A stretch of DNA of 58,078 nucleotides from Candidatus Saccharimonadota bacterium (lineage in GTDB: Bacteria > Patescibacteriota > Saccharimonadia > Saccharimonadales > UBA10212), in assembly GCA_016187125.1 (NCBI GenBank), contig JACPKF010000006.1, forward strand, positions 1 to 58,078. Direction: 5' to 3'. The notes under the pieces were generated by a model. It did not search any database, had not been told where the DNA came from, and saw only the letters and a list, made by a program, of their open reading frames with translations. The translations under genes were made by a program, and so were the position numbers. Of the stretch, positions 13,800-56,593 are shown piece after piece. Position 1 is the stretch's first letter. Each line of letters starts with the position of its first letter.

Positions 13800-14119
13800 G
13801 CACTTGAATAAAAAAAGTGCTCAAAACAAAAACACTAAATAGAACAACGGCTTCTCGCAAGCCGTTGTTCTATCCAAAAGTAATAAAACAAAGAATCGTT
13901 CGCCAACCTCCAAACCCAGCACCTAGCTTCGAGCGCTTCGCAAAAAATTATCCGTCCAAGCGGATAATCTCGGAGCTAGGTGCTGGGCAAACACCCAACC
14001 CAGTAGTAGACTTTCGCGACTATCCGCAAGGCGGATACTGGCAAAGCCACGCAAAAGCTCACTACTGGGCCAACCAAACATTACAAAATGGCCCGCAAAA
14101 CTCGGGCCATTTTGTTTTA
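13800..14119 (+). ncRNA. Candidate ~320-nt structured RNA ending in an intrinsic terminator
   Basis: Three long hairpins lie at 13840-13872, 13915-13987 and 13999-14069. The terminator is ATGGCCCG-loop-CGGGCCAT plus TTTGTTTT (14085-14119). Confidence 0.4.
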
Positions 14120-16610: not shown

Positions 16611-16788
16611 TCGTGATTGCATCACTCCAATTATCAATTAGCAATTTTCAATTCTGCCTACTCCGCCGAAGTAGCTTCGGCTACGAAGGCCGAGCAATGA
16701 ATAATCAATTATCATTTATCAATGCAGTTACATGGAAAATGGTCAATGGTCAATGGTCAATGGTCAATGGTCGCGTAGAGGATATATC
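16611..16788. repeat. Hairpin spacer between rpmI and rplT, including a TGGTCAA heptamer tandem repeat (16739-16773)
   Basis: ATGGTCA occurs four times in tandem. There is a GTAGC-TTCG-GCTAC hairpin and ATCAATTA repeats. Confidence 0.75.
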
Positions 16789-18663: not shown

Positions 18664-19338
18664 TTAAGATTTTCTTCGTTCCTGTTCGTCTAAAATTCGA
18701 TTCACCTCTGTATCAGCTTGGTTATTTAAAATCCTTGGAACGTGAACAAATTTAATACTCTCAAAGGTTCGTGCCAGTTTTTCTATCTGTTGATGCAGTG
18801 GCTGAAGCAAGTTATTTTTAATCTTGTAAAGACCGTTGATTTGTTTAATTACCAGTTCGCTATCCATGTGAACTATCAGTTCCTTAACCCCGACTTTTTT
18901 TGCCCTCTCCAGACCCTTAACTAAAGCTTGATATTCAGCTTGATTATTAGTAGCTATGCCGATATAGAACCCTGATTTTTCTACAACATTATTGTCCAAA
19001 TTACAGATTATAAAAGCACCAGCGGAGGGTCCAGGATTGCCTCTCGAACCGCCATCAGTATATAGTTTTGCAGCTATTAAACTAGCCTTGGAAGAGCCTT
19101 TTGTCTGTGCTTTATAGGCGGCATCTATAGCTCTTGCCAATTTGTGGTCTTTGTTCGTAATCTTGCCTTTTGTGTGGGTACTGAGCCAAATCTCCACTTC
19201 ATTCCAGTCATTTTGCCAGCGCGGGTGGTGGTTCTGCTTTTCGGCTTCGTCAGCCACTTTTGCCATAAACTTAAAAGCCGCTTTAAAATCTTTGAGCTCA
19301 AATTTTCTATATAATTGTTTGTCTTTCTCTTGCCACAT
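18664..19338 (-). CDS. Fusion of a pterin-4a-carbinolamine dehydratase (PCD/DCoH)-like domain and an RNase HI-type domain
   Basis: The N-terminus has FKFMAKVADEAEKQNHHPRW...LSTH. The C-terminus has YTDGGSRGNPGP, NNQAEYQAL, HMDSELV and NNQAD (a DEDD pattern). Confidence 0.8.
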   Translation of the reverse strand: MWQEKDKQLYRKFELKDFKAAFKFMAKVADEAEKQNHHPRWQNDWNEVEIWLSTHTKGKITNKDHKLARAIDAAYKAQTKGSSKASLIAAKLYTDGGSRGNPGPSAGAFIICNLDNNVVEKSGFYIGIATNNQAEYQALVKGLERAKKVGVKELIVHMDSELVIKQINGLYKIKNNLLQPLHQQIEKLARTFESIKFVHVPRILNNQADTEVNRILDEQERRKS

Positions 19339-20141: not shown

Positions 20142-20220
20142 CCACTTGGCTATTTTATCAGAGAAGCCTAAATGGGGTCCCCGCAAAGTGCCAACGCAGT
20201 GCATTTTGTGGGGAGAGGGG

Positions 20221-20298
20221 CAACAATACAAGACCCCGCTAATTTTTGGCTACCCAGGTCGCCAAAAATTTCTAGCGGGGTTGATATTAGTTGCGACG
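20221..20298 (-). terminator. Conserved 78-nt hairpin module, copy 1
   Basis: ACCCCGC..TTTTGGC...GCCAAAA..GCGGGGT. It is ~90% identical to 37824-37898, which directly follows tRNA-Gly. Confidence 0.6.
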
Positions 20299-20431
20299 AG
20301 GTAGCCGGCTCCGGCACTCAATTACTCTGCTTTCGCAAAGTGGGTGTCCGCACGCCAAGTCCACGGACTAAAGCGCATGTAAGACTCCCTGTTGTAAACT
20401 ATTCAGAAAATTTATTGTGCCGTCACCGACT
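20299..20431 (-). ncRNA. Candidate ~130-nt small RNA (unknown class)
   Basis: On the minus strand an extended -10 TGCTATAAT lies at 20438-20446. The 3' end abuts the same module that follows tRNA-Gly. The ends can pair (CGGTGACGGCAC with GTGCCGGAGCCG), and there is a GAAA-capped 7-bp stem. Confidence 0.35.
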
Positions 20432-22425: not shown

Positions 22426-22715
22426 CTAGAACCCATTTCAATACCTCCTTCGGAGTTCGAGAGACTCAATTCCAGGTTAAAGATGACTGATTTCTTGCGA
22501 CAAGCTGTACCCATTGGTACATCGCGAAGTGAAGCACCGCCAATAGGAGTTGGCGGCTTCCCAGATTACGGTGCGAAACCCCGCACCGAAGGCCAATGCA
22601 CCAACTATCATCCACCGACAGGAGTCGGTGGCCTTCTGGTGCGTGGGGCAAAAATCAGTTAGATTGCCTGGAATCTGGTTCGCAGAAGGAAGGTAGGTTT
22701 TGAAATGGGTTCTAG
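22426..22715. mobile_element. 290-bp TAGAACCCA-terminated inverted-repeat element (MITE-like or structured RNA), copy A
   Basis: The termini are CTAGAACCCATTTCA and TGAAATGGGTTCTAG, with the imperfect inverted repeat extending to ~25 bp. The interior is dense in GC hairpins. Confidence 0.6.
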
Positions 22716-23407
22716 CCGGATTTAAGTACAATCAGGCGTGCCGTGTCGGTAAATTCAGCCGCTTTGGGCTTATATTTATCTAGGGTCTCGCTGGGCTCCA
22801 TGGCCAGAGCCTTAAGAGCCTCAGCTAACTCAGCTTGGGGCACTTGGTACTTAATAGCTACACCTGCGTAGTGAGTTGGAATAATGACTTTAGGCTCAAG
22901 CTTCTTGATTATCTGCAGAGCCCCTGCTCCGTCTAATGTATAGCCATTGCCGCCAACCGGCACTACGGCTATATCCACCAGCCCAATTTGTTCCAGTTGG
23001 TCGTCGCTAAGCTCGGGATAAATATGGCCTAAAATCGCCACTTTCAAATCATCGGCCGAGATCGTATAGATAACGGCGTTATGGGCATCCGGCTCATCCA
23101 TCCCGTTAGAAGTCCGATTCGCTGAGCGCGAATCGGCAGATTTCTGCGAAGTCTTACTTCTAACGGGATCCATATGAGACCGGGCAGCAATGCCGTGAAT
23201 AGCCACGCCGGAAATTTCGTATTCGCCGGGCATATCGGCTTTAAAGCGAGCTTCGTGATCCGGGATGCCGGCGTGGGTGTTGAGGCTTATATCAGTTGGC
23301 TTGGTTATGGTTTTTAAACCAAGCTCTGCCAAATTGTCGTCAATAACGATAGCGGCTTTTTTGGTAGTTATACGCAGACAATTGGCACCGTAGTACTGCA
23401 GTTCCAT
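22712..23407 (-). CDS. MBL-fold metallo-hydrolase (UPF0173-like) with a 24-aa palindromic-element insertion
   Basis: It has a beta-lactamase-fold layout ending ...VIIPTHYAG. The stop TAG lies inside the terminus of element A. Confidence 0.75.
   Translation of the reverse strand: MELQYYGANCLRITTKKAAIVIDDNLAELGLKTITKPTDISLNTHAGIPDHEARFKADMPGEYEISGVAIHGIAARSHMDPVRSKTSQKSADSRSANRTSNGMDEPDAHNAVIYTISADDLKVAILGHIYPELSDDQLEQIGLVDIAVVPVGGNGYTLDGAGALQIIKKLEPKVIIPTHYAGVAIKYQVPQAELAEALKALAMEPSETLDKYKPKAAEFTDTARLIVLKSG
23096..23173. mobile_element. CCCGTTAGA palindromic element, copy 1, in frame within a CDS
   Basis: ATCCAT-CCCGTTAGAAGT...ACTTCTAACGGG-ATCCAT. The arms are 12 bp and there are two internal hairpins. 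The element plus one direct repeat is 72 nt. Confidence 0.7.
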
Positions 23408-28406: not shown

Positions 28407-29651
28407 TCACTTACTACGAGATGAGGCTTGCTCAGCTATTTTAGCCAGAAAATCGTCGATAGCCATAGCTTGAGCCGGCTGTTTGCCCAAGTCGGAACGC
28501 ACCCGCGGCACTATTTTTTTAGAATCGAGTTCCTTTTGACCAATAACTACTGCGTAAGGCACCTTCATAACCTCGACGTTGCGGATCTTTTTGCCAACCG
28601 ATTCATTACTGTCATCGAGCTCTGCTCTAATACCTAACTGCTTAGCACTTTCTACAACGTTTTTGGCCATTTTTAAGATAGATTCTTCGTCATTCAGTGT
28701 CATAATCCGCAATTGCTCAGGGGCTAGCCATAGTGGAAATTTTCCGCTGGTATGTTCGATATAGATGGCCAGGAATCTTTCGATAGATCCCAGCAGTGCA
28801 CAGTGAATCATTACCGGTCGCTGCTCATGACCTTTTTCATCTATGTATGACAGTTTAAATCGTTCTGGTTGGACAAAATCAAGCTGAACGGTTGCTAACT
28901 GCCACTCCCGGCCCAGTACATCTATGGCGATAAAGTCTATCTTAGGACCATAAAAGGCAGCATCGCCGGGAGCTACAGAATATGCCAGTTTTTCGGCTTT
29001 TGCTACTTGTTCCATAATTTTTTGGGCTTTATCCCATAGCTCAGATGATCCCAAATAACCCTTCCCTTTATCTCTAAATGACAGTCGGAATTTAAGCCCC
29101 ATGCCTATGGTTTCATAAGTTTCTTGAGCGGCTTCAATTAACTCCTTGACTGAGTTTTCGATTTGGTCGGGCCGGCAAAAAACATGGCTGTCATCCATAC
29201 TGATAGAACGGACTCTAGCTAAACCCTGTAGTTCTCCGCTTTTCTCGTCTCGGTAAACTGTGGCTGTTTCGAGGTACTTAAATGGTAATTCTCGGTAGCT
29301 GCGGGGTCTAGAGGCGTATATCTGGGTATGGTGGGGGCAATTCATCGGTTTTAGGACTAATTGGTCTTTTGTTTCCTGGCTTTTTACCAAAAAAAGCTCT
29401 GCGCCAAATTTATCCCAATGACCTGAGGTCTTATAGAGATCCGTCTTAGTTATATGAGGCGTCCATACCTTGCTAAAGCCTCTTCTCTCTCTGAGTTCAT
29501 TAGAATAGGCCATTAACTGCTCCCGTAGAACAGTTCCACGCTGTGTCAACATCGGCAAACCCGATCCCACTAGTTCACTCGTGACAAATAGGTCAAGTTC
29601 CTGGCCTAGCTTACGGTGATCGTTGTCATCCAATTTTTGCGGCTCATCCAT
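28407..29651 (-). CDS. thrS: Threonine--tRNA ligase, short form without TGS and editing domains
   Basis: It contains DHRKLGQELDLF, class II motif 2 YRDEKSGELQGLARVRSISMDDSHVF, motif 3 GSIERFLAIYIEH, and an anticodon-binding C-terminus. The start is placed at ATGGATGAGCCG, while the listed ORF starts at 29666. Confidence 0.93.
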   Translation of the reverse strand: MDEPQKLDDNDHRKLGQELDLFVTSELVGSGLPMLTQRGTVLREQLMAYSNELRERRGFSKVWTPHITKTDLYKTSGHWDKFGAELFLVKSQETKDQLVLKPMNCPHHTQIYASRPRSYRELPFKYLETATVYRDEKSGELQGLARVRSISMDDSHVFCRPDQIENSVKELIEAAQETYETIGMGLKFRLSFRDKGKGYLGSSELWDKAQKIMEQVAKAEKLAYSVAPGDAAFYGPKIDFIAIDVLGREWQLATVQLDFVQPERFKLSYIDEKGHEQRPVMIHCALLGSIERFLAIYIEHTSGKFPLWLAPEQLRIMTLNDEESILKMAKNVVESAKQLGIRAELDDSNESVGKKIRNVEVMKVPYAVVIGQKELDSKKIVPRVRSDLGKQPAQAMAIDDFLAKIAEQASSRSK

Positions 29652-29762
29652 CCCGTTAGATCTCACTTAACTTTCTAATATATTAGTTAATGCCTGAAAA
29701 GCGCTCACGTGTTCAATCGTGCAACTATTTACGGTCGTCTTCTGAGATCTAACGGGATCCAT
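29646..29762. mobile_element. CCCGTTAGA palindromic element, copy 2, inserted directly behind the thrS start codon
   Basis: ATCCAT-CCCGTTAGATCTCA, then 77 nt, then TGAGATCTAACGGG-ATCCAT. The arms are a perfect 14 bp. Confidence 0.75.
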
Positions 29763-30167
29763 AATTCACTCCATCATAACACCTGTAATGAGACAAAACC
29801 TAGGTTTTTTCTTTATCGTTTATTGGCCAAGCCAAGCTCAAAAGAGTAAATTTACGATTTTTTTGACCAATAAATGCCCTAGTTCAACAAAAAACTGGCT
29901 TGAGCAGCCTCGCAATGCTGTTCAAGCCAGTTTATGTGATGCTTTAACACATCGGCAAAACTCAACCTACGAAAGAGTATATATACGCTAGCCATAAAAT
30001 GCTAGTACTTTTTTGTTAGTTTATCCACAGCTGTGGATTAGTATCTTTTATACCATATATGATAGCCCTGCAGCAAAGTCTTGCCTACTCTATATCACAT
30101 AAGGTAAGTTCCGCGACGCTACAGTTGGAATCCCGATCGAGGCACGGGGAGTTATAATATTTATTAA

Positions 30168-37714: not shown

Positions 37715-37823
37715 AAAAATTTAGCTGTTAGTCTCTAGCTCAAAGCTCTTAGCCATAAGACTTATTCTACACCGGAAAGTTGGGGCCCCCAAGCCGTGAG
37801 AATACGGCTTGGGGAAAAGGAGT

Positions 37824-37898
37824 AACAATACAAGACCCCGCTAAATTTTGGCTACTTGTTCGCCAAAATTTCTGGCGGGGTTGATATTAGTTGCGACG
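37824..37898 (-). terminator. Conserved hairpin module, copy 2, directly 3' of tRNA-Gly
   Basis: ~90% identical to 20221-20298. Confidence 0.65.
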
Positions 37899-37972
37899 TG
37901 GTGCGAGTGACGGGAATTGAACCCGTATCCCCAGCTTGGGAAGCTGGTATACTGCCACTGTACTACACTCGC
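37899..37972 (-). tRNA. tRNA-Gly (CCC), CCA encoded
   Basis: The rc is GCGAGTG..CCAGC-TTCCCAA-GCTGG..ACGGG-TTCAATT-CCCGT-CACTCGC-ACCA. Confidence 0.92.
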
Positions 37973-38929: not shown

Positions 38930-39096
38930 TAGAACCCATCTCATAATAATTTTGGATAGCAAAAAACGAATATTCTTTGAGCGACAAGCCTGAAGCGCGA
39001 GGAAGTGTAATCATAGTTACATTGACGAGTGATAAAGGTTCTGCAGCCAAATAAGGCCGTTTTTCGGCCCAAAACTTTATTATGAGATGGGTTCTA
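38930..39096. mobile_element. 167-bp TAGAACCCA-terminated inverted-repeat element, copy B
   Basis: The termini are TAGAACCCATCTCATAATAA and TTATTATGAGATGGGTTCTA. It shares the internal motifs GCGACAAGC and GGTTC(T)GCAG with copy A. Confidence 0.6.
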
Positions 39097-40362: not shown

Positions 40363-41481
40363 TTAAAAGCGGACGTAGGTCTTGGATGGTTCTTTAGCCT
40401 GCAAGTCTTTAATGTAGAACGAGATGTCTTTTAGATTGAAAGAAATATGCTGAGCCGTGACAGTTGTGCCGTCGCTCCCGATAACTTTAACAATTTCTAG
40501 GGTGTCGGGCTTATTAATATCCACCCGGCTGGCTAAAATTATGCCCGAAACTTGGCCGGCTTTGAGTTTAAACAGCTCATTAATAACCTCTGGGGACACA
40601 TTGGGATTAGTTTTGGTGATGCCAAAACCCCAGTCGCCGTTACTGGCCTTACTGGGATCGTCGGAGTTTTGGGCGGCCAGGCTGCCAAAATCAGCCCCAG
40701 CATTAGACTGGGCTAAAACCGATTGGGCTTTAGCCTGTGCGCCGACGTCGAGTTTGGCTACCACTCTCTCAGCCAGCATTTGGTCCTTTAGACTGCGTCT
40801 AAAATCGGCGATCGACCAACCCCAATAATCCCGCAGCACATCAGCAAACACTTTATTGTTGCTACCCAGGCGGTTTTGCTGACGGACTTCATTTATCCGA
40901 GCGTCGACTTCGCGGTCCGAGACTTTAACACCGTTTTTCTTGGCCAGGGTTTTTACATAGCCGTTATTGATCACGTTTTGCAGAGCCTGCTTCCTAAACT
41001 GATTTATTTGCTGCTGGCCGCCAAACAAGCGCTGTTGTTGAGTTTGGTAATAATGAATATAGTGTCGCAGTTCAAACAAATAATTCTCGTAATTCACGTA
41101 TGCATCGCCGGCACGGGCTATGGGAAACGGAATAACTTGGGTAACCCGGTAAAGGAAAGTGTTGTACTGGTAAAACTTATAAAGCGCTAAGCCGCAGTAA
41201 ACCAAAAAAGTTATTATGGTAACGGCTGCGATACCACTGCTAATAACCAAAATGCGGTGCTTAGAATGGGCCAGCGGATAAATATATTTACGGGCTCCAG
41301 ACAGCACCTCTTCCCTGTGCTCGGTAATAGTTTCACTGGTAATATGCGGAACATCCTTAAGAGATATCGGCTCTGGTGGCCGGGGCAACGGACTAAAACT
41401 GGCGGCCTTTTCGGTTACCACGTCCGGCAATAGTTTTTTGACCTTTTTAACTCTTTTTTTGAAATGCTTTCTCAGTTTCAT
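40363..41481 (-). CDS. Membrane-anchored SurA/PrsA-like parvulin peptidyl-prolyl isomerase
   Basis: It has a TM anchor, a SurA_N-like region and a parvulin segment ...FGSLAAQNSDDPSKASNGDWGF... Confidence 0.75.
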   Translation of the reverse strand: MKLRKHFKKRVKKVKKLLPDVVTEKAASFSPLPRPPEPISLKDVPHITSETITEHREEVLSGARKYIYPLAHSKHRILVISSGIAAVTIITFLVYCGLALYKFYQYNTFLYRVTQVIPFPIARAGDAYVNYENYLFELRHYIHYYQTQQQRLFGGQQQINQFRKQALQNVINNGYVKTLAKKNGVKVSDREVDARINEVRQQNRLGSNNKVFADVLRDYWGWSIADFRRSLKDQMLAERVVAKLDVGAQAKAQSVLAQSNAGADFGSLAAQNSDDPSKASNGDWGFGITKTNPNVSPEVINELFKLKAGQVSGIILASRVDINKPDTLEIVKVIGSDGTTVTAQHISFNLKDISFYIKDLQAKEPSKTYVRF

Positions 41482-42098
41482 AGCTCTTCGTCGTCTTGAT
41501 CATGGTCTTTTTCAGTACCGGGCCGCATAGTATGATGAATTCCCAAATCTCTCAAAATGTGCACCATTTTTTTCTGGACTTTTTCTGGGTGGTGCACTTC
41601 GTTAATCACCAAATCTCCCACGTAAGTTTGTACGACTATTGTACCAAAACCCAGCATCGTCTGTTCTAGTCCGGCGATTTGATAATTAATCATTTGTATC
41701 TGTTCTAGGCCAATATCCACTACATTTACCTGGAGCAAGCTGCGGGTTTGTTGAATAAAACGCTTGTCGGTCATTATATAAACGCTGAAGTACCAGCGGA
41801 CCCACCAGGGGAATAATATGAGTACAAACAGTAAGAAACCGCCAACTAGCCCGCCAAAAAAAACACCGTACTGTGGTTTTATAAGCGCTGGAGTCATAGC
41901 CAAAAGCAGACCAGCCGATGCAAATATTATTCCCCGGCGCATAACAATCGGGTGTTTTCTAAACACCAGCATTGTCTCTTCGTCTTCAAACTGCTCTTTA
42001 AAATATTTGGGCTTACCCGGTAGTGAGTCCGCCTCGGTGGGTCTACTACCGGGCCTCTTGACTTCAACTTCATTCTCTTTGGCTGGCTTTTCGCTCAT
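41478..42098 (-). CDS. Bacterial PH-domain (YdbS/YdbT-like) membrane protein
   Basis: Two TM segments are followed by the bPH_2-like YIMTDKRFIQQTRSLL...GFGTIVVQT. The start is placed at ATGAGCGAA (42098). Confidence 0.7.
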   Translation of the reverse strand: MSEKPAKENEVEVKRPGSRPTEADSLPGKPKYFKEQFEDEETMLVFRKHPIVMRRGIIFASAGLLLAMTPALIKPQYGVFFGGLVGGFLLFVLILFPWWVRWYFSVYIMTDKRFIQQTRSLLQVNVVDIGLEQIQMINYQIAGLEQTMLGFGTIVVQTYVGDLVINEVHHPEKVQKKMVHILRDLGIHHTMRPGTEKDHDQDDEEL

Positions 42099-42294
42099 CC
42101 CGTTAGAACCCACTTACCTTCCGTAGTTTGGTTAACGATTGAACGCGGGCGCTTGCCCAGTAGTGAGCTTTCGAGATTATTCGCCTTCGGTGAATATTCA
42201 TCTGTTCTTGCAGATGGACTCGAAAGTCTACTACTGGGCTTGCTTCAACGTAAAAATAAATATTGTAGGTCTTTTGGGTTCTAACGGGACTCAT
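42094..42294. mobile_element. CCCGTTAGA palindromic element, copy 3, inserted directly behind a start codon
   Basis: CTCAT-CCCGTTAGAACCCA, then 162 nt, then TGGGTTCTAACGGG-ACTCAT. The arms are 14 bp. Confidence 0.7.
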
Positions 42295-42393
42295 GGCTAC
42301 ATTATATCCGGCCTTCGTAGCCAAAGCTACTTTGGCGGAGTAGGCTAGGTTAGAGGTTGTAGGTTACAGGTTGCGGACTTAAAATACATGTAC

Positions 42394-43261: not shown

Positions 43262-44182
43262 ATGAGCTATGAAGACGCTGTCGCCCAGTTCTTAGAATAT
43301 CAAGAGCTAGAACAAAACCGCTCAAGCAAAACCATTGAAAATTACAGCCATTACTTAACTCGCCTTAGCGACTTTGCCGGTGATATTAAGCTCAAAGATA
43401 TTGACGTCGAGCTAATCAGGAAATGGCGGTTGTGGCTTAATCGCTTGGGCACCAACACCTCTGATGAGCTGTCTAAGGTGACTCAAAACTACCATCTTAT
43501 TGCTCTGCGCAGTTTTTTGCGTTTTTGCGCCAAGAGAGGGATAACCGCCCTTGCCCCAGATAAGATAGAGCTGGCTCGAACCACTCGCCCCCAAGTGACC
43601 TTTTTAACTTCTGAAGAGCTCGAAAGATTGACTGCCCAGCCTAATGTTGCGACTCTGAATGGGCTGAGGGACCGGGCTATTATTGAACTGTTGTTTTCCA
43701 GTGGGCTGCGAGTCAGCGAGTTAGTAAGCCTCGACAAAGATCACATCAATCTTCGGCGCCGGGAGTTTATGGTCCGCGGCAAGGGCCAAAAAGACCGGCC
43801 AATTTTTATCAGCGCTGAGGCAGCTGACTGGATCCAAAGATATTTGGACAAGCGTCAAGATAATACAAAACCGTTATTTATCAGATACAGTGGCAGTAAA
43901 AAGGTCGATTTATCCGGTAATTACCATCGCCTGACGGCCCGCAGTGTCCAGCGTATGATTGCCCGCTACGGCTTGGCCGCCGGCATCACTAAACACGTAT
44001 CCCCCCATACTTTAAGACATTCGTTTGCAACCGATTTATTGATGAACGGAGCTGATTTGCGCTCAGTTCAAGCCATGCTGGGCCATAGCAACATCGCCAC
44101 TACTCAAATCTACACTCATGTAACTGATCCACATCTCAAAAAAGTTCACGAGCAGTTCCATCGAGCGGCCAAAAGAAGTTAA
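43262..44182 (+). CDS. xerC: Tyrosine recombinase, XerC/XerD family
   Basis: It has an N-terminal SAM-like domain, plus GLRVSELV, HTLRHSFAT and LGHSNIATTQIYTHV. Confidence 0.9.
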   Translation: MSYEDAVAQFLEYQELEQNRSSKTIENYSHYLTRLSDFAGDIKLKDIDVELIRKWRLWLNRLGTNTSDELSKVTQNYHLIALRSFLRFCAKRGITALAPDKIELARTTRPQVTFLTSEELERLTAQPNVATLNGLRDRAIIELLFSSGLRVSELVSLDKDHINLRRREFMVRGKGQKDRPIFISAEAADWIQRYLDKRQDNTKPLFIRYSGSKKVDLSGNYHRLTARSVQRMIARYGLAAGITKHVSPHTLRHSFATDLLMNGADLRSVQAMLGHSNIATTQIYTHVTDPHLKKVHEQFHRAAKRS

Positions 44183-44729: not shown

Positions 44730-47054
44730 CTATCGGATAGCGCTATAGGATCGCTGGTTCCCCCGGGGCTTAACTATGCAAGCCCTGAGCTTGGACTTTC
44801 GATTGACTGGCGCCGGTTTTTGAGTTTTTGGGAACTGACGCCTATTGGACTGGCAAGCAATCTTGCCCTTGTAATTAGGTGGCGCTAATTTCGGGATTGG
44901 CTTAGGCAGAGATTTGGGAACGGATGGGGGTCTTTGGTTGGAGCGGGGTCTTGAATTGGATCGGGGTGGTGAGGCCGGAGGTGGAGCTGATTCAGGACCG
45001 CGGACAGGCGTTGATCGCGGGGTTGGGGATGGAGTCAGCTCAGGACCGGAGGCAGGTGTTGATGTTGAGGACGGAGTTGACTCTCGGCTAGGAGCTGGTG
45101 CTGCTGAAGGTGAAGTTGGATGCGGGGATAGCTCGGAGCTAGGAGCCGGTGATTGTGCGGGAGAAGTAGGAATTGAAGTTGACACGGAATTTGGTGAGGA
45201 TGCGGGAGTCAAGGTTGGCTCAGAGGTGCGAGCTGATGGAGGGGTTGGAGACGAGGTCAGCTCAGGACCACGGGCCGGCGATGATGTGGAAGGTGGAGTT
45301 GAGGATGGAGTCAGCTCAGGACCACGGGCCGGCGATGATGTGGAAGGTGGAGTTGATTCAGAAGCAGGAAGGGGTGATGTAGCGGATGGAGTAGGTGGAG
45401 CAGCTGGGGGTGATTCAGGACCAGCGGCTGGCGCCGGTTGTGGAGCTGGCTCAGGGCTAGGCGCTGGTGCAGAAGGTGGGGTTGATGACTCAGGACCAGG
45501 CGCTGAAATCGGCTTATCAGGTGTAGAAGCCGGTGTAGAAGCACTGGTAGCGCACGCCATTGGCGGGCCCTGCACCATACTACCCTCCATGGCATTGGCG
45601 GGCACATCAATTATTGGCGGATTGCCCAAACATACCAACATATCTTTAGAGGAGACGTAGCGGTACTGTCCGCCGATACTTTCGAAGACTTGGCCATTGG
45701 ACATGTTGCGAAAGAAGGCTCCTTGAGGTGGAGCCATAGCGGAACCTTGATAAAGTCCATATATTGCCCGTGTTTCGCGTAAATCTGGGCTGCCATTAGT
45801 ATGCAGGTATTTTAAGAGTGGGGTTGGATAAGGGTGAAGCACATACCCCTCGTTTTGATTATTGCCAGTAACGCGAAATTGCTTAAGATCCTCAGGCGTT
45901 TTTACCACTATCTGCGGTGGGAAGGCACAAAGTACCGGTACGCTTGAGTCGTGAATCTCGACAGTTCGGCGGGCAGATTGAGGAACTATATTAATAGTCG
46001 ATCTGCCGCTTGTGATTTTAATACATTCCAAAACGGCATTGTTATTAGCATGCAAGCCAAACCAGCCATATGACCGTAGATTTGCGACCCTTACGGTAGG
46101 ATCGCCGGCAACCCTGTAAATCATGCCGTTTTCCATGGGCAATGGTTTACCGGTAAAGTCCCATAGCCGCATAGTATTTGGGATCATCTGAGCCTTGTTG
46201 CGCACATTCAAATCATCTACTTCACCCTCGGTAATGGTATAAGCGTTTTGACCGTAAAAATAATATTGTTGTTTTTCGTCTTGTCTATAAACTGCAGTGC
46301 CGTGACCGGGTGGATGGTCTCCTGGCCCAGGATATCCGACTTCGTTATTGTGCACATCCTCAGTACTGACAGTTGCGCTTGGCTTTTCACCCCAAGTTTT
46401 AGTATCGGCGTCTGTCCATTGATCCATATGCTTTATCCACCACAGCCGCCCTCCAACCTTTGTATAGGCATGCCGTTCCTGCGACATAACTTCTCCACCC
46501 TCACCTATCTGGTTATATGCAACAGTGCTAGGCGCCGTATTCCCGCCATTAGAGCCTGTTGAGCCACTCAGCCTGTTACCAACTCCGTTAACGTCAATAT
46601 AGTGATCGGCATCTACTTTACTTGTGCCATAAGCTTCGCCCCGCTGAGTAAAGTTTCCATGTTCATCTTTATTAAATTCAGAAACATTGACCGATCCATC
46701 TGGATTAACACTATCAACGAATGCGACGTGAGTGCTATCCCATTGGGCTATATCACCGGCTTCCGGTCCAGTCTTTTCTGGGTCCAGCCCAGAAACTTTA
46801 TAGCCGTCATCATGTGCGCCCGTATCCCATGTATTAGCACTACCCCAATCCGATGGAATATTGACTCCGAACTCTTTATTAGCCCGCCACGCCGCATAAG
46901 AAGTACAGTTCCTGACAACAAAACCCCAGGGGTCGCTTTCATGATATACATCATTTGTTCCGGGTTTGGTGACATTGAAGGTGTTACATGTTCCTGCTGC
47001 TTGCATAGCCGGCTGACATTCCGTATAGCCCCAGTCATAGACAGGTTGATTCAC
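44730..47054 (-). CDS. CHAP-domain cell-wall hydrolase with a large middle region and a Pro/Ser/Thr-rich repetitive tail
   Basis: CHAP motifs are NCTSYAAWR (Cys) and THVAFV (His). The C-terminal tail is low complexity, with a 54-nt tandem repeat at ~45247-45356. Confidence 0.85.
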   Translation of the reverse strand: MNQPVYDWGYTECQPAMQAAGTCNTFNVTKPGTNDVYHESDPWGFVVRNCTSYAAWRANKEFGVNIPSDWGSANTWDTGAHDDGYKVSGLDPEKTGPEAGDIAQWDSTHVAFVDSVNPDGSVNVSEFNKDEHGNFTQRGEAYGTSKVDADHYIDVNGVGNRLSGSTGSNGGNTAPSTVAYNQIGEGGEVMSQERHAYTKVGGRLWWIKHMDQWTDADTKTWGEKPSATVSTEDVHNNEVGYPGPGDHPPGHGTAVYRQDEKQQYYFYGQNAYTITEGEVDDLNVRNKAQMIPNTMRLWDFTGKPLPMENGMIYRVAGDPTVRVANLRSYGWFGLHANNNAVLECIKITSGRSTINIVPQSARRTVEIHDSSVPVLCAFPPQIVVKTPEDLKQFRVTGNNQNEGYVLHPYPTPLLKYLHTNGSPDLRETRAIYGLYQGSAMAPPQGAFFRNMSNGQVFESIGGQYRYVSSKDMLVCLGNPPIIDVPANAMEGSMVQGPPMACATSASTPASTPDKPISAPGPESSTPPSAPAPSPEPAPQPAPAAGPESPPAAPPTPSATSPLPASESTPPSTSSPARGPELTPSSTPPSTSSPARGPELTSSPTPPSARTSEPTLTPASSPNSVSTSIPTSPAQSPAPSSELSPHPTSPSAAPAPSRESTPSSTSTPASGPELTPSPTPRSTPVRGPESAPPPASPPRSNSRPRSNQRPPSVPKSLPKPIPKLAPPNYKGKIACQSNRRQFPKTQKPAPVNRKSKLRACIVKPRGNQRSYSAIR

Positions 47055-47069
47055 TTCGGCAGCGTTAGC

Positions 47070-47240
47070 TCAAGGATATCCACCGTCACCTCCTTTTGCA
47101 GACTTTGGTAGCCCCAAGAAACTAACAGCAACTAAAGACATGGCTATGGCTTTACCAAATTTACTGCCCAAAACTGCTCTCGCAAAATTGCCGATGCTTA
47201 CAAGGCTCTCTGTTTCTGGTGATTTTCTTAGGTGGTTCAT
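47070..47240 (-). pseudogene. Signal-peptide segment of the CHAP gene, separated from it by an in-frame TGA
   Basis: MNHLRK...KAIAMSLVAVSFLGLPKSAKGGDGGYP-TGA-ANAAEVNQP... is in the same frame as 44730-47054. Confidence 0.55.
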
Positions 47241-47271
47241 TTTACGTCCATCGACCCGCTTATAACAAAAG

Positions 47272-47769
47272 CTATCTGCCCACAAGTTCTAATGTCTTAC
47301 TAATCGCTTCAACTAGTTCAGTTACTTCTATAGCAAAACCACGGTTTTCATCCACGTTAAATCTGTTATTCTGATTACACCCTACTGAGCTAGGAGCAAA
47401 TTGGTAGGTATATCCATCAATTACCTTAAAGGGGGTCGGGAAAAATTCATTCGGATTTTCATTAACAGAAGTACGAAATAGTCCTTTAGAAAGACCGATT
47501 TTATCTGCTCCACACAATGGCTCCACTTGGGCATATTGTTTAGATCCAAAGTTAATAACATTACGCTGTTTATCATATGAGTAATAAACATCGTTTGCTA
47601 TGTCTGAAGGAAGTTTAAACTTCACGCCCCATTCTTTGATGACAAGGTATTGACCGCTGTCAGCCGGTGGTTGATTGTTTTTTTTATTTTGCCAGGGTTG
47701 CCAAATGGCCAGAGTCGCTGCCGCGGCTAGGATTATGACTAGGAAAGTTACTATTCCCCAGCGTTTCAT
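47272..47769 (-). CDS. Hypothetical secreted or anchored protein (165 aa)
   Basis: N-terminal hydrophobic segment IVTFLVIILAAAATLAIW. Confidence 0.6.
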   Translation of the reverse strand: MKRWGIVTFLVIILAAAATLAIWQPWQNKKNNQPPADSGQYLVIKEWGVKFKLPSDIANDVYYSYDKQRNVINFGSKQYAQVEPLCGADKIGLSKGLFRTSVNENPNEFFPTPFKVIDGYTYQFAPSSVGCNQNNRFNVDENRGFAIEVTELVEAISKTLELVGR

Positions 47770-48158
47770 GGTTACCCTCTTTTCATCCGCAGTCTATAGA
47801 AAAACTGTTTTGGATGTCAACCACAAGCAAAATATTTTTCTAAAAACTACAACGGTTCAAGGGATTAATTAAACAAAAACCTAATTTTTAAAATTACCGT
47901 CTTACAAGGTTCCTTGCAATCCTTGCAAGTTGCAAGGCCTGGCCTTGCTGCATTGTAGAGTGACAGAGCCGGGTCTTGGAAACCAGAAGTTTGGGCTTTC
48001 TTTGCAAGGTAACACCTTGCAAGAGGGTGGTCTGGCGTGTGGGTCTTGGGCCGAGGGCAAATGCGATGTTCTGGCGCTGGTTTTAAGGAGTTGCGGGCGG
48101 AGTTTTTAAAGATTTAACTAAATAAAAAATTCCACCGTAAGAAGTAATCTCTTATAGC

Positions 48159-49373
48159 TTAATTAGTTGCAGTGTGACCAACAGACCAGCCAGCATGTTT
48201 ATCATCGCATGGAGTCCCTAAGCCATCTAGAGTTGTCCAGCCATCAGAGAAATAATTAAACCCCTCTTGATAATCAGCTTGTTTACCAGTAGGGTCTCTG
48301 CTAATAATGCCGGTTCCTACAAACATCTTACCCGGACCATAAGTCTCCATTGGATAATGATAACTTCCTGCACCCTTTAGATCTGTTTCACACTGAAGAC
48401 CATCATCCCCGCGGTAGATCATGTATGTGTATGTAGTACCGGTAATTCCAGATTCACACCTGATTGATTTTTTATTTGCCAAAAGGTAGCCTGATTGGAC
48501 GTCTGCCGCCTCGCTCACATAATTACACTTATCGCCACTCGGTGTATATATAGCCTCTGAAGCAATACCACCGCCCTTTAATGTATACAATGATGTAATT
48601 AGTTTTGGCTTGCTTATGGTCAAACCAGTTATTACGCTAACTGAAGAACCGTCAGAAGACATACTAACAGCTGTATTTGGCGAGCTAACAAGCAATGGTT
48701 GAGGGGCACAAAGTACAAGTGAATCGGCTTTACTAAATACCCGTTTTCTGGTGGCATTACCTTTTAGACCTTGATATGAAGCTGATAGTTCGAAATTTGC
48801 TCTAAGGATGGGTGGCATAGCACCACCTATAGGCTTCTCTACTACATTAGCTGGAGCTTTAGGTGTACTGAACTTATCACCTGCACCTGAACCAGAATAG
48901 CCAGAAACAGTACACTCACCAACAAAATCTCTTGAGGTCTCCGTCCAACGCCATGTCAAATTCTTTTCTGGTACTGAGGCATAGGCGACAAACTTGGGTC
49001 TTCCCTTTTTATCCGTTAGAACATTACCAATTTTGCAACCAGAAGTCTTTTTTTCTGGCTTAATAAAGCCTCCAGCGATTACTATATTACCAATAGTACA
49101 TTTTATAGTGTCTTGGCCATCAACCCGGGCGGCTTCGGCTCTGGATGAGGCACCTTTTTCACCACTGGCATTGGCTGTACCGCCAGCTAAAGCCAGGGCT
49201 GATACTAAGGCAGCGGTTGTAGCAATAACTTCTCTACCAGCCAAATGTTTGAGAGAATCAATAATCATTGAGCCAACTGCTCGAGGTCGACCGATCAAGG
49301 TAGGGTCAGCTTCAACAGTCACACCATCAAGAGCTTGTTCTATACCTAATTGCTCTCTATTACCGATTGTCAT
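48159..49373 (-). CDS. Hypothetical secreted protein (404 aa)
   Basis: Signal-like TTAALVSALALAGGTANASG. The protein is Gly/Ser/Thr rich. Confidence 0.6.
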   Translation of the reverse strand: MTIGNREQLGIEQALDGVTVEADPTLIGRPRAVGSMIIDSLKHLAGREVIATTAALVSALALAGGTANASGEKGASSRAEAARVDGQDTIKCTIGNIVIAGGFIKPEKKTSGCKIGNVLTDKKGRPKFVAYASVPEKNLTWRWTETSRDFVGECTVSGYSGSGAGDKFSTPKAPANVVEKPIGGAMPPILRANFELSASYQGLKGNATRKRVFSKADSLVLCAPQPLLVSSPNTAVSMSSDGSSVSVITGLTISKPKLITSLYTLKGGGIASEAIYTPSGDKCNYVSEAADVQSGYLLANKKSIRCESGITGTTYTYMIYRGDDGLQCETDLKGAGSYHYPMETYGPGKMFVGTGIISRDPTGKQADYQEGFNYFSDGWTTLDGLGTPCDDKHAGWSVGHTATN

Positions 49374-49441
49374 TATCTAACTCCTAGCTGCAAAACCATA
49401 CATTGTAATATTACACTAATTTATGCAATATGTCAAAAAAC

Positions 49442-50146
49442 TTACTGGTTGATCTGTAGGCCATCAATTATCTGTTGCCAAGTCTTTTGATTATCTTGCC
49501 AATTTTTTTCGGCGGTAGCTATAAAAAAATAGTAAAAATTATTGTTATGGATAGCATAGATTGCTTTACCCTTATACGTTCCAGCTTTACTACTAGGATC
49601 TTTGGTGCTGATTGCAAATTGCCAAGCGTTATCCTTAATAGTTTTATTGGTAAAGGGTTTTGCCTTTTCTAGACTAACTTGCCAATCCGATGGTAGCCAA
49701 TTCTTTACAAAACTTTCAATTGGACCGGCAACTAATGAATAGTTCTTATCTGGAAATGCAAAATTTGCTTTTAGGGCTAACAATTCTATATCTGTGTAAG
49801 CAGTCGCTTCTGATGTTGAAGCAGCTGATAAAAATGCTGCGCTTACTTGATTGTTTTTTGAATTAACCGATTCTTGTCTTAGGGCAATCTGGTCATTAGC
49901 CTTTTTATAATCCTTAAAACTAGAAGGTTTTAAAAATACTACGCCGCTGCCCGTTATACTACCTTCTAGATGGTAAGACCCCAAATTTGAGTAGGTATAT
50001 TTGGTTTGTGGATTATAAATTAAAAAATAATAAGTTATGGCAAACAACCCAGCTAAGACAGCAATAATAGCCAGATTTCTTTTAACTAAAGCATCACTGG
50101 ATAAACTCGCTTTTTCTGTAAGATTTTTATGCCGCCATAATTTCAT
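49442..50146 (-). CDS. Hypothetical membrane-anchored protein (234 aa)
   Basis: A single N-terminal TM segment, LAIIAVLAGLFAITYYFLIY. Confidence 0.6.
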   Translation of the reverse strand: MKLWRHKNLTEKASLSSDALVKRNLAIIAVLAGLFAITYYFLIYNPQTKYTYSNLGSYHLEGSITGSGVVFLKPSSFKDYKKANDQIALRQESVNSKNNQVSAAFLSAASTSEATAYTDIELLALKANFAFPDKNYSLVAGPIESFVKNWLPSDWQVSLEKAKPFTNKTIKDNAWQFAISTKDPSSKAGTYKGKAIYAIHNNNFYYFFIATAEKNWQDNQKTWQQIIDGLQINQ

Positions 50147-50167
50147 CTGTTTTTCCTTATTTATAGC

Positions 50168-53100: not shown

Positions 53101-53347
53101 GATCCTTGATATAACTAGCCGCGTCATTAATAGCCGACTGAGCGCCGTAACTGGCAATATTACTGGCTTGATTGTTGGTTGAGTTGTTAACCGAGCGGTC
53201 CGTGAGGCGGGCAAAACCCAAACTTATTAGGGTTATAACCACCGTCAGCACCGTAACCACGACAACCGAGGCCAAGCCCCTTTCACCACGCACCTGTTTA
53301 GGCATAGGCATAAGCTTAATTCTACTAGATTGGCGCCCAATTTTCAT
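50168..53347 (-). CDS. Giant PilX-N-domain protein (pilus-associated adhesin-like) with three tandem ~95-aa domains
   Basis: The N-terminus ERGLASVVVVTVLTVVITLISLGFARL resembles PilX_N. Repeats have the form WPPPT..I....V.AG.SFTL.W......C......YTITC. There is a poly-Pro tract PPPPPPPGPP. Confidence 0.7.
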   Translation of the reverse strand: MKIGRQSSRIKLMPMPKQVRGERGLASVVVVTVLTVVITLISLGFARLTDRSVNNSTNNQASNIASYGAQSAINDAASYIKDHPTAASTSCSGEGSLIGSSTAPGPFYNDSNLSGDAGRSTRYTCLLVNQEPKDLLYQRLPPSKSRVIKMTTSASPGELDKIMLSWQPTNTQVTGYPPSSTPLLDITTWNGSANNYLPLLRLTLYPVPTGGSVANLEANSKTVFLYPQSSSGPVPTQSYSAMKNGSPLPVACTKELGVGSFNGSADFTCNLIISNLAAAIALPDKLDYFYLRLTPIYNQADVRIQANNAGGQILKILRVQALIDATATSGGVAKRLQARLDISGSDENIDPFSDSIPEYALRSAGAVCKRLVGITSPYSYTQLDGPPAVCNQLGDPIIYTPAPTLDFTINAVDSETTDDFGQKGTAYTDSSAALAWTSTDAAGGCSARAAAPRADWSGNKNLPPSTWSGSTNTGSQNIPSITNRTTFTLSCSGPGSGGAPLERTVTAWPPPTASISDPGPVVAGTSFTLTWNANNASQCQFSDDWTPAISPVSNPGGAPISGNQTIATDWDDTSARSYTITCNDPPAREATYTRNLTVTWPPPTVTISGPSSITAGDSFTLSWSVGNSSSCSSSGWPTPISLSGLKGQPKNDNQTIATNWRDNGTQTYTITCDNPGGSFSRTWNVGINGDTKKSPPTCTADWNLVDKGDGTGTLSWNGACPTFAAGAGFYYFTDCTPELAAVTNGCRGVGNAASQTVGPGHYSGTFHSGVEPWGTRASSANKSFDVVAPPVHVIISKPSTIWIWPDSDYDFSFKTSQPLTPNDCRDGLHRLVLCFDIDAYQGTDTFDNRSKIAYCEISTGGVKINTSNNGRGSQHWSRQGKWIDYTIGWFDLPRYTQPGNNYDFIKDVYVSCVPKPEYGSVRGSDSKTVRWKTCADRGQQGIYATDAAQNDCSNPPPPPPPGPPRGDVIVTITDNRCISRNAQRKCNRTSVSYASSQANGTILRCNESWSANNGSGSGPIPYPSGTFSIGGLHPGGSITVSCTSKEDGWVGTAFATLFY

Positions 53348-54378: not shown

Positions 54379-54390
54379 TGCCTGTTGTTT

Positions 54391-56477: not shown

Positions 56478-56593
56478 TATCTAGAGTATAGCATAAGCGG
56501 ATAGGGGTGGTTCCCCTATAGCCATTAGCTTCTAGCTCATAGCCACCAGCCTGAAATGTTTGGGCTAAGTACTAAAAGCTAGGTACTTAAAAG

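Follow-up and report, generated by a model that had tools for sequence, protein, structure and literature searches.

Does the palindrome inside the MBL-fold hydrolase gene of this 58,078-nucleotide stretch (the window) belong to the gene, or is it mobile DNA that the gene carries in frame? The features of the locus were defined as follows.

22712..23407, minus strand: host gene, MBL-fold hydrolase (Pfam Lactamase_B_3), 231 aa with the insert versus 207 aa in orthologues.
23102..23167, minus strand: 66-nt palindromic element core, CCCGTTAGAAGT...ACTTCTAACGGG on the coding strand, encoding PVRSKTSQKSADSRSANRTSNG; absent from the orthologous DNA of L003 and L004.
23156..23167, minus strand: 5' terminal inverted repeat CCCGTTAGAAGT, which pairs with 23102-23113.
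23102..23113, minus strand: 3' terminal inverted repeat ACTTCTAACGGG, defined by sequence and fold.
23138..23154, minus strand: internal hairpin 1, variable in sequence within the subfamily and covarying (ten 66-nt copies compared).
23114..23136, minus strand: internal hairpin 2, CCGATTCGC-loop-GCGAATCGG, which the 63-73-nt subfamily conserves.
23168..23173, minus strand: upstream copy of the direct repeat ATGGAT, the Met-Asp of ...SHMD, defined by sequence and empty-site comparison.
23096..23101, minus strand: downstream copy of ATGGAT, the Met-Asp of MDEPD..., defined in the same way.

The minus strand of 23096-23173 reads ATGGAT CCCGTTAGAAGT...ACTTCTAACGGG ATGGAT and continues with GAGCCG. 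The 12-nt arms are perfectly complementary. A 90-nt stretch forms the terminal stem and two internal hairpins with a folding energy of -43.7 kcal/mol, compared with -23.0 ± 3.2 kcal/mol for shuffled controls (z = -6.4; 0 of 200 as good). Six of the seven pairs in helix 2 are changed on both sides among the ten 66-nt copies, which indicates covariation. These data confirm the palindromic element of the initial annotation, with its 12-bp inverted ends, two internal hairpins and flanking ATGGAT repeat. Within the window, exact CCCGTTAGAAGT occurs solely as the inverted pair of this element, and there are only three inverted CATCCCGTTAGA/TCTAACGGGA pairs, all three on gene coding strands. The element plus one repeat is 66 + 6 = 72 nt, and the translation of ORF 22712-23407 (minus strand), ...HMD PVRSKTSQKSADSRSANRTSNG MDEPDAHNAV..., bears out the proposed 24 in-frame codons without a stop. 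An in-frame TGA is present on the antisense strand.

Orthologues were used to distinguish filled from empty sites. Nearly all of the best 120 homologues listed are 207 aa long, the length obtained when 24 residues are subtracted from 231, and the alignment recommended in the initial annotation shows the 24-aa indel as a clean 24-column gap exactly at the element position. At the DNA level, two closer orthologues (L003 and L004) have one ATGGAT, no element and the empty site CATATGGAT/GA, and at the filled sites (window, L001 and L002) ATGGAT flanks the element on each side. The element was expected to occupy a loop, with ...SHMDEPD... restored on its removal, and the AlphaFold model agrees: residues 78-104 have pLDDT below 50 and no secondary structure, and they lie between strands 68-74 and 111-118. 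The closest solved relative of the hydrolase is 1VJN (TM0207), and the insert region is variable in that alignment. The same protein segment in other lineages without the palindrome had been named as the observation that would count against an insertion. Homologues P0003 and P0005 do carry the segment, and the insertion stands because both keep the palindromic nucleotide structure. The palindrome in the MBL gene is thus a genuine insertion, in frame, of a very small mobile element.

A public scan for the element ends returned at least 120 loci, most of them in Patescibacteria and the remainder in Planctomycetota, Omnitrophota and further groups; the pattern itself demanded exact 10-nt ends, T...A included. 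Exact 10-nt ends common to several phyla are unusual for an insertion-sequence family, but here they were demanded by the search pattern. The copies analyzed (3 in the window and about 170 in fetched loci) are 59-190 nt long and share the ends (T)CCCGTTAGA...TCTAACGGG(A). Among the matches listed, the direct repeat has an exact 4-bp core in 95 of 148 copies, led by TGAA (45), TGGA (14), TTGA (13), TGAG (7) and TAAA (6), and about a third of the copies are without an exact direct repeat. The bases adjoining the element in these matches are always T and A, as set by the scan pattern, and the more distal ones vary. In a second subfamily, whose ends are C...G, the repeats are TTTA, TCAA and TTAA. 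Nested copies also are present among the matches listed. There, 61 of 108 copies have a 12-bp terminal stem, with a pattern of nine fixed plus three variable base pairs, and the interior sequence is not conserved across the family. Stem positions beyond the nine fixed pairs comprise 340 Watson-Crick pairs, 1 G-T and 2 A-C in the same matches. Selection on RNA structure was considered and rejected: the essential absence of G-U pairs from the stems is evidence against it, and sense and antisense strands fold at -26.7 and -26.2 kcal/mol, with the sense strand the more stable in 61 of 110 copies listed.

The family has these traits of a MITE: inverted ends, a target duplication established against empty sites, small size, dispersed copies and no transposase gene. 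No autonomous partner with the same ends was found in the window, nor a long end pair in the ~1 Mb of fetched loci (collection scans covered spans of up to 600 bases), and a Pfam scan of 35 window proteins (ORFs of at least 110 aa) detected no transposase domain. Rfam gave no match over the elements at the gathering threshold in the window and 18 loci, and none at E ≤ 10 over the third window copy. Plasmid and phage collections contained no meaningful match, and full-text literature searches that included both end sequences did not find a description of the family. The family is large, spread over several bacterial phyla and apparently undescribed.

The other two family members in the window are located at start codons.

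29652..29756, minus strand: second family member, 105 nt long and located precisely at the start codon of thrS, with ATGGAT at 29757-29762 and 29646-29651.
29773..29778, minus strand: TATGAT -10-like box (from sequence), 10 nt before the upstream ATG of the thrS copy.
42099..42288, minus strand: third family member, 190 nt long and located where the gene for a bPH_2 membrane protein has its start codon, with ATGAGT upstream (42289-42294) and ATGAGC downstream (42093-42098).
42156..42238, plus strand: a different CCC-ended palindromic element nested in the third copy, CCCAGTAG...CTACTGGG, 83 nt (from sequence).
42301..42306, minus strand: TATAAT box (from sequence), 6 nt before the upstream ATG of the third copy.

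The thrS copy lies outside the protein, exactly at the start codon, which is the main habitat of the family. The frame from its upstream ATG, MDPVRSQKTTVNSCTIEHVSAFQALTNILES followed by a stop, ends 15 nt before the thrS ATG. Relatives L151-L153 provide the empty sites, and the GGTGTTATGAT context of the TATGAT box is the same upstream of the empty thrS start in L151. The MBL and thrS copies do have the identical junction noted earlier, ATGGATGAGCC; thrS orthologues natively start ATGGATGAG (Met-Asp-Glu), and the shared junction is therefore explained by native target sites that resemble each other and not by element sequence. Two N-terminally extended ThrRS homologues (P0143 and P0153) were considered as in-frame start-codon insertions and proved to be gene-calling artefacts in which the element is absent. 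In the third copy, the upstream ATG begins a 64-codon frame that is open throughout the element, including the nested insertion, and terminates in the right inverted repeat, whose TAA lies 4 nt ahead of the ATG of the bPH_2 gene. The nested element has its own 4-bp direct repeat, CTTG (42152-42155 and 42239-42242), and element plus repeat is 87 nt, or 29 codons, which keeps the upstream reading frame open. The TATAAT box 6 nt before the ATG is the layout expected for a leaderless transcript. As listed, the window thrS and bPH_2 ORFs start from GTG inside the element.

The same arrangement recurs across the family. Among the matches listed, about 60% of the copies adjoin a real gene's ATG, in many cases with a TATAAT box 6-7 nt upstream, and some of the others are located in -35 boxes. 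Reading frames were restored computationally for 24 in-gene candidates among the matches listed, and 17 inserts are stop-free and multiples of three; all cases with long ORFs on both sides pass, save one viral contig. Of the start-codon copies in these matches, 34 of 59 have an open frame from the upstream ATG, compared with 11 and 14 for the other two frames, and in 29 of 59 the length is 1 mod 3, which brings the frame to its end at the TAA of the repeat. Copies inside genes thus obey a frame rule, and copies at start codons have an excess of open upstream frames.

Insertion relative to empty orthologous sites, inverted ends, a direct repeat, multiple and nested copies, and spread across phyla all are observed, and the element is probably a non-autonomous, MITE-like piece of mobile DNA that has inverted ends, duplicates its target and is tolerated because it can be translated through. 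Its ends are the inverted repeat (T)CCCGTTAGA plus 3 bp ... 3 bp plus TCTAACGGG(A), it presumably moves by the cut-and-paste action of a transposase, and insertion would duplicate a 4-bp core, usually in an A-T[G/T][A/G]A-T context. In the MBL gene the element would have landed at CAT A/TGGA/T GAG in a surface loop, and it may persist there because its 72 nt are open in the host frame and would be translated as a 24-residue loop insert. Insertion at the A/TGAA or A/TGGA of a start codon would regenerate ATG on both sides. Ribosomes starting at the old ATG, often the 5' end of a leaderless transcript, would then enter the element with one of three outcomes: the upstream frame may fuse in frame with the downstream gene, terminate at the TAA that the right repeat carries 4 nt ahead of the gene's ATG, or end in a TGA that overlaps this ATG. 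Read-through, or termination followed by reinitiation, would then bring about translation of the downstream gene, a form of translational coupling.

The preference for start codons admits more specific readings. One tentative proposal is that these are multi-phylum mini-transposons specialized for translation and transcription start signals. They would insert in the A-TGAA or A-TGGA first codons of often leaderless genes and in the TTGA of -35 boxes, their end bases would rebuild the split signal, the TAA 4 nt before the ATG would couple the host gene, and some lineages may have acquired translational switches. A related and somewhat more doubtful proposal is that the elements are targeted to start codons or have been recruited as a translational control module, in which a 5' hairpin hides the start region until translation of the short upstream frame opens it, and some copies supply their own Shine-Dalgarno sequence or promoter. 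This proposal overlaps with the MITE-like reading because the element would then be a mobile element with a function. Targeting would account for the distribution: among the matches listed, true-start-like ATGs hold 49% of the elements versus 4.2% of all sequence-matched AT[G/T][A/G]A sites, a 12-fold enrichment, and the -10 boxes are most frequent 6-7 nt before the upstream ATG. However, about 26% of AT[G/T][A/G]A sites in non-coding DNA are at true-start-like ATGs, and the roughly twofold excess that remains can arise by selection against promoter or terminator hits. A control function is suggested by interior motifs with a sense-strand bias in the matches listed (CGGGA 30 versus 4, GGAGG 12 versus 0), by sense-biased Shine-Dalgarno-like motifs 13-19 nt before the ATG, and by a class that carries ACYTGT on the left, where the upstream ATG is absent and the TGT can pair with AUG only by G-U pairs. 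The 66-nt subfamily also is uniformly oriented relative to the gene in these matches, but the stop codon on the antisense strand explains this bias. The lack of G-U pairs in the stems again argues against selection on RNA structure, the genes downstream of start-codon copies are housekeeping genes with unrelated functions among the matches listed, and the MBL copy has no plausible regulatory role.

The history of the MBL site was considered separately. The three insert-bearing orthologues fall in three separate clades, each with a closer insert-free relative, and all have the element at the same insertion site. A single ancient insertion, inherited vertically and precisely lost many times by slippage between the ATGGAT repeats, is an unlikely source of this pattern. 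Direct repeats around a palindrome are a classic substrate of precise deletion, and the window and L001 copies share the derived hairpin 1 states T18/A26 and A27. Against this, three insert-bearing clades among best homologues listed that are mostly 207 aa long would require dozens of independent precise losses. The L002 copy is 63 nt and is placed by the subfamily tree in a different subgroup from the window and L001 copies, with a shorter hairpin-2 loop; this position in a separate 63-nt subgroup also led to rejection of the idea that it arose by a frame-preserving 3-nt deletion. The window and L001 elements are 91% identical in genes that are ~74% identical at the protein level, a difference that fits either recent independent insertions or constraint on the element and decides neither. 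Given the saturated synonymous divergence of the genes, 91% identity is hard to square with great age.

The MITE-like reading assumes a transposase, and movement by a tyrosine recombinase or a single-strand hairpin pathway instead of a DDE transposase, with the flanking repeat as the crossover region, is improbable. Joined ends would form TCTAACGGG-ATGGAT-CCCGTTAGA, two 9-bp inverted arms around a 6-bp spacer that resemble a recombinase core site. The repeat is 6 bp in 35 of about 95 copies and at least 5 bp in most among the matches listed, the three-helix fold is conserved and its pairs covary, as is the case for elements that work in folded single-stranded form, and a XerC/D-like recombinase gene is present in the window at 43262-44182. 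However, the target sites have no similarity to recombinase arms, and the mismatches in the repeats fit a 4-bp duplication plus element-borne end bases, the T and A next to the element. The variable triplet is uncorrelated with the target, which argues against guide-like recognition. The element was examined as an integron attC site, since TCTAAC and GTTAGA resemble the consensus, but the order on either strand is 5'-GTTAGA...TCTAAC-3', the reverse of 5'-RYYYAAC...GTTRRRY-3', and the attC assignment was rejected for this reason.

It is highly improbable that the insert is removed or skipped in expression to yield a 207-aa protein, by RNA-level excision or by ribosomal bypassing between GAU codons, for although identical ATG GAT codons surround a very stable hairpin, in-gene copies keep to stop-free multiples of three, a rule that would be unnecessary for a removed or skipped insert, there is no stop codon after the take-off codon, the Rfam searches gave no intron or ribozyme match, and the interior is not conserved across the family.

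The family illustrates how selfish DNA can survive in Patescibacteria, whose genomes are tiny and gene-dense: whether the interrupted signal is a start codon, a reading frame or a -35 box, it is rebuilt from the element's own ends and the duplicated target. In uncultured lineages the TCCCGTTAGA...TCTAACGGGA signature is a marker of true start codons and of probable leaderless promoters, and the element accounts for N-terminal or loop insertions of 20-35 residues and for some start errors of gene callers. The MBL gene offers a directly testable case of protein-loop evolution by mobile DNA outside Rickettsia. If targeting is active, the element would be a rare transposon aimed at translation start sites.

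Rickettsia palindromic elements (RPEs) are small palindromic repeats that lie in frame in unrelated housekeeping genes, encode a peptide that fits the host fold and are patchy among orthologues (PMC10969869). The window element is likewise in frame and stop-free, as are the other in-gene copies among the matches listed, and the inserts presumably are translated. The initial annotation called the element RPE-like, and the likeness holds for in-frame behavior, in-gene copies being stop-free multiples of three, and not for membership in the RPE families. RPEs are ~100-150 bp and confined to Rickettsia and relatives, whereas this family is 59-120 nt and occurs in other phyla, and the 66-nt element of the MBL gene is half the RPE size; assignment to RPE-1 to RPE-10 was rejected on size (66 nt) and host (Saccharibacteria-like). 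The family also differs from RPEs in its sharply defined 12-bp inverted ends, its 4-bp target duplication, and a main site at the start codon and not in the gene interior.

The byp elements of yeast mitochondria and the T4 gene 60 gap are also short structured inserts in coding sequence with matching flanking codons. The ribosome skips those inserts, which need not preserve the frame, whereas in-gene copies of the present element are in frame and stop-free. A T4 gene 60-type bypass was rejected on the same grounds, stop-free multiples of three, together with the lack of a stop after GAT. Palindromes derived from IS200/IS605 and REP sequences do not correspond either: they lack inverted ends and a target duplication and insert 3' of a fixed tetra- or pentanucleotide that a guide sequence specifies, whereas in the present family inverted ends and a duplication are present and a triplet-target correlation is absent.

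The piggyBac/IS1380 transposons have a 4-bp palindrome-like duplication (TTAA), ends that start with CCC and a patchy spread consistent with footprint-free excision. The T-N-N-A duplication, CCC ends and likewise patchy spread of the present family are a lead only toward this group: no related transposase was found in the window by Pfam, and the target center is GA, GG or TG and not TA.

In organization the family resembles bacterial MITEs such as the Correia elements of Neisseria, ERIC and Nezha, which share terminal inverted repeats, a short target duplication, no transposase coding and a high copy number per genome, and which likewise insert into one another and now and then form in-frame fusions. 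The present family departs from them in having no known autonomous parent and ends conserved across phyla, as the scan pattern demanded. Its terminal stem is fixed (9 + 3 bp) and perfectly paired, its interior is a three-helix junction and not one long hairpin, and its copies are enriched 12-fold at gene starts.

The palindromic insertion in the MBL-fold hydrolase gene is real, and the element is a member of a large, apparently undescribed MITE-like family. Besides the MBL copy, only two further inverted CATCCCGTTAGA/TCTAACGGGA pairs occur in the window.

Main-family elements in the window, and the element nested in copy 3
23096-23173 (-): MBL copy with its repeats; ATGGAT, CCCGTTAGAAGT AAGACTTCGCAGAAATCT GCCGATTCGCGCTCAGCGAATCGG ACTTCTAACGGG, ATGGAT, then GAGCCG
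29652-29756: thrS copy; 105 nt, between ATGGAT and ATGGATGAGCCG, the thrS start
42099-42288: bPH_2 copy (copy 3); 190 nt, flanked by ATGAGT and by ATGAGCGAA, with which a bPH_2 membrane-protein gene starts
42156-42238: element of a different family nested in copy 3; CCCAGTAG...CTACTGGG, own 4-bp repeat CTTG

The 12-nt arms of the MBL copy are perfect complements, and the 90-nt stretch holding the element forms a terminal stem that encloses two hairpins, with a folding energy of -43.7 kcal/mol compared to -23.0 ± 3.2 kcal/mol for shuffles (z = -6.4). The ORF at 22712-23407, whose product is a Lactamase_B_3 (MBL-fold) protein, continues uninterrupted across the element; the antisense strand has an in-frame TGA. 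Sequence, fold and ORF bear out the 12-bp arms, two hairpins, ATGGAT repeat and in-frame read-through described in the initial annotation. The MBL protein has 231 aa versus 207 aa in nearly all of the best 120 homologues listed, and the homologue alignment has a single clean 24-column gap between ...ARxHMD and E..., which confirms the proposed 24-residue indel. In the two closest insert-free orthologues (P0002, 89% identity, locus L003; P0004, 83% identity, locus L004), the DNA reads CATATGGAT directly followed by GAA/GAG, with ATGGAT once only. The ATGGAT-element-ATGGAT arrangement is present in the window and in two other MBL orthologues. In an AlphaFold model (34 homologues), residues 78-104 have pLDDT <50 and no secondary structure and fall between strands 68-74 and 111-118. 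TM0207 (1VJN), the closest solved relative, has a variable, indel-bearing region at the insert position. Model and relative support the suggested loop position, and the original description was correct for each detail checked (sequence, alignment, empty sites and loop model).

The three insert-bearing MBL proteins fall in three clades, and for each of them a nearer relative lacks the insert (89%, 87% and 70% identity). A metagenome scan with the 3' half of the MBL-copy subfamily found 20 loci, the majority at start codons of other genes. In the subfamily copy tree, the MBL copies of the window and of L001, a second insert-bearing locus, are neighbours, and the copy of L002, the third, joins a 63-nt subgroup with a shorter hairpin-2 loop. 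The separate clades and the placement of L002 make two or more independent insertions at the one MBL CATATGGATGA site the simplest reading, and a single ancient insertion with many later precise losses an unlikely one. The CATATGGATGA site agrees with the preferred target A-TGGA-T.

The thrS orthologues start MDE... and are 410-413 aa long, and the empty thrS site ...ATGGATGAG occurs in three relatives with the same GGTGTTATGAT context upstream. The junction ATGGATGAGCC is common to the thrS and MBL copies as first noted, but these starts and empty sites mean that it is native to both targets and not element sequence. Subtracting the nested element leaves ~103 nt of copy 3, similar to the thrS copy. 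The bPH_2 copy has TATAAT-N6-ATG upstream, and its 64-codon upstream frame, uninterrupted by the nested insert of 87 nt (29 codons), terminates at the right-repeat TAA; the upstream frame of the thrS copy ends 15 nt before the thrS ATG. Mechanical ORF calls for thrS (28407-29666) and the bPH_2 gene (41478-42113) begin at GTG within the element, giving the miscalled N-termini MRSNGMDEP... and MGSNGMSEK.... TAAGTGRG directly precedes the right repeat in both 105-nt-type copies, so that gene callers are prone to extend the protein by 5 spurious residues. Similar start-calling errors occur, without any element, in homologues P0143 and P0153. The window ThrRS (28407-29651, -) is a 414-aa short form in which the editing and TGS region at the N-terminus is absent; the same search gave other Saccharibacteria ThrRS homologues of 593-643 aa with a tRNA_SAD domain (PF07973). 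Two mutually inverted copies of a GC-rich 37-nt hairpin, GCCTACTCCGCCGAAGTAGCTTCGGCTACGAAGGCCG, lie at 16656-16692 and 42309-42345 (95% identity), one of them directly upstream of the copy-3 promoter.

A public scan of one genome per species with the pattern TCCCGTTAGA-N40-70-TCTAACGGGA matched at least 120 loci, with ~34 expected by chance by our estimate. Patescibacteria account for most matches listed (Saccharibacteria, Nomura-, Kerfeld-, Yanofsky-, Levyi-, Kaiserbacteria and others); further hosts among these are Planctomycetota, Omnitrophota, WOR-3, Stahlbacteria and Nitrospirae, and some host MAGs bear the label Gammaproteobacteria or Bdellovibrionales. The element is also present on six viral contigs. 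Family statistics were drawn from roughly 150 copies. The terminal stem is 12 bp in 61/108 copies, with nine fixed and three copy-variable pairs. Positions outside the nine fixed pairs are 340 Watson-Crick, 1 G-T and 2 A-C, a near-exclusive pairing that points to DNA-level symmetry rather than RNA-pairing selection. The direct repeat has a 4-bp core, exact in 95/148 copies (TGAA 45, TGGA 14, TTGA 13, TGAG 7, TAAA 6). The element-adjacent bases are T and A, partly imposed by the search pattern, and the repeats in a subgroup with C...G ends are TTTA, TCAA and TTAA. Nested copies are common. Inverted ends, duplication and nesting are hallmarks of a MITE-like transposon. The 66-nt copies (n = 10) keep the three-helix junction, with 97.9% of cells paired versus 93.0 ± 0.8% when shuffled. 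Only helix 2 is informative for covariation because the helix 1 and 3 arms are partly fixed by the search pattern; 6 of its 7 pairs change on both sides, and the covariation score of the ten copies was matched by 0/500 shuffles. The 35 window proteins scanned against Pfam (ORFs of at least 110 aa) include no transposase, only a XerC/D-like recombinase (43262-44182), and no long element bounded by main-family ends was seen in ~1 Mb of fetched loci. If joined, the ends would place a 6-bp spacer between two 9-bp arms. This layout is recombinase-like, and recombinase-based movement is retained as a minority alternative.

Palindromic elements of other families adjoin at 13915-13987 (CCCAGCACCTAG...CTAGGTGCTGGG, 4-bp repeat CAAA) and 13999-14069 (CCCAGTAGTAG...CTACTGGG, repeat CCAA), with a partial copy near 34359 and a relative of the second nested in copy 3 (42156-42238). 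They have CCC ends and a 4-bp duplication in common with the main family. Just upstream of tRNA-Pro and tRNA-Gly lies a repeat of 90 nt (20210-20302 and 37812-37902; 89-95% identical). It includes a short palindrome, CCCCGCTAA...TCTAGCGGGG, and the palindrome arm CCCGCTAGAAAT differs from the main-family end at two positions.

The MITE-like family is distinctive in occupying start codons and -35 boxes, with both preserved. An ATG opening at least 60 codons adjoins 92/150 copies, and element removal leaves a true-start-like site in 73/150; this fraction is 4.2% for all AT[G/T][A/G]A sites of these loci and ~26% for the non-coding ones. The downstream genes are ordinary housekeeping genes (dnaA, dnaG, ndk, tyrS, glyS, ruvC, mreB, ribosomal proteins and hibernation factors). 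A TATAAT-like box often lies 6-7 nt before the upstream ATGNN copy, with 14 boxes at a 6- or 7-nt spacer versus at most 3 at any other single length. This spacing is leaderless-gene geometry. A second class occupies A-TTGA-C at -35 boxes, and a -10 box follows 17 nt downstream. In the start-codon and -35 classes alike, the target duplication and the element end base together rebuild the signal beside the gene. Relative to the non-coding sites available, starts are over-represented about two-fold, which either selection by itself or genuine targeting or function could explain; CGGGA and GGAGG motifs biased to the sense strand of the elements and an ACYTGT class with no upstream ATG bear on this question. 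A composite conserved in two genomes (public loci L022, 3212-3380, and L120, 413-580) has an ATGAAT-flanked outer element that encloses a promoter of TATAAT type and, just before the gene ATG, an entire inner element; promoters directed at the downstream gene can thus be carried by elements.

Translation of the insert was inferred from coding rules across copies. The element and one repeat were removed, and an ORF of at least 70 codons was required on each side of the junction. Inserts in 17/24 candidates are multiples of three and stop-free; 6 of the 7 exceptions have a merely marginal 70-79-codon frame on one side, and the remaining one, from a viral contig, lacks a direct repeat. This rule would not arise if the insert were removed at the RNA level or bypassed by the ribosome, which makes either event highly improbable. 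All start-codon copies of the MBL-copy subfamily have one orientation because the antisense strand has the in-frame TGA. The upstream-ATG frame is open across the interior in 34/59 start-codon copies, versus 11 and 14 for the other two frames, and the window thrS and bPH_2 copies conform. Length is 1 mod 3 in 29/59, so that the upstream frame ends at the TAA in TCTAACGGG, 4 nt before the gene ATG.

Other window features include a large inverted repeat at 38930-39096 (39-nt arms, TAGAACCCATCTCATAATAATTTTGG..., 89 nt apart) beside the tRNA-Thr/amino-acid kinase region. A partial 16S rRNA gene (1-1054, -) covers model positions 1-871 with 1054 bases and therefore has a ~180-nt insertion; such insertions are common in Candidate Phyla Radiation rRNA genes. 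One ORF (18664-19338, -) fuses pterin-4a-carbinolamine dehydratase to an RNase H (RVT_3) domain, a fusion also called in L001. A block of large ORFs, most without a Pfam match, spans 44730-57481. Its products include a CHAP-domain protein of 774 aa (internal tandem repeat at 44964-45356), a protein with an N-terminal methylation motif and a prepilin peptidase, and it contains paralogous ORFs at 54391-56477; the block resembles an island for type IV pili or surface proteins.

No Rfam family matched the elements (window, 18 loci and copy 3), and full-text literature yielded no description of the main-family element. An integron attC site was rejected on the reverse order of the boxes, and IS200/IS605-type guide targeting was ruled out as the variable stem triplet is uncorrelated with the target. 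Membership of the Rickettsia element families was rejected on size and host grounds. The initial interpretation of an RPE-like insertion in the MBL gene, probably translated, is upheld, and the main-family element behaves similarly to Rickettsia palindromic elements (PMC10969869).
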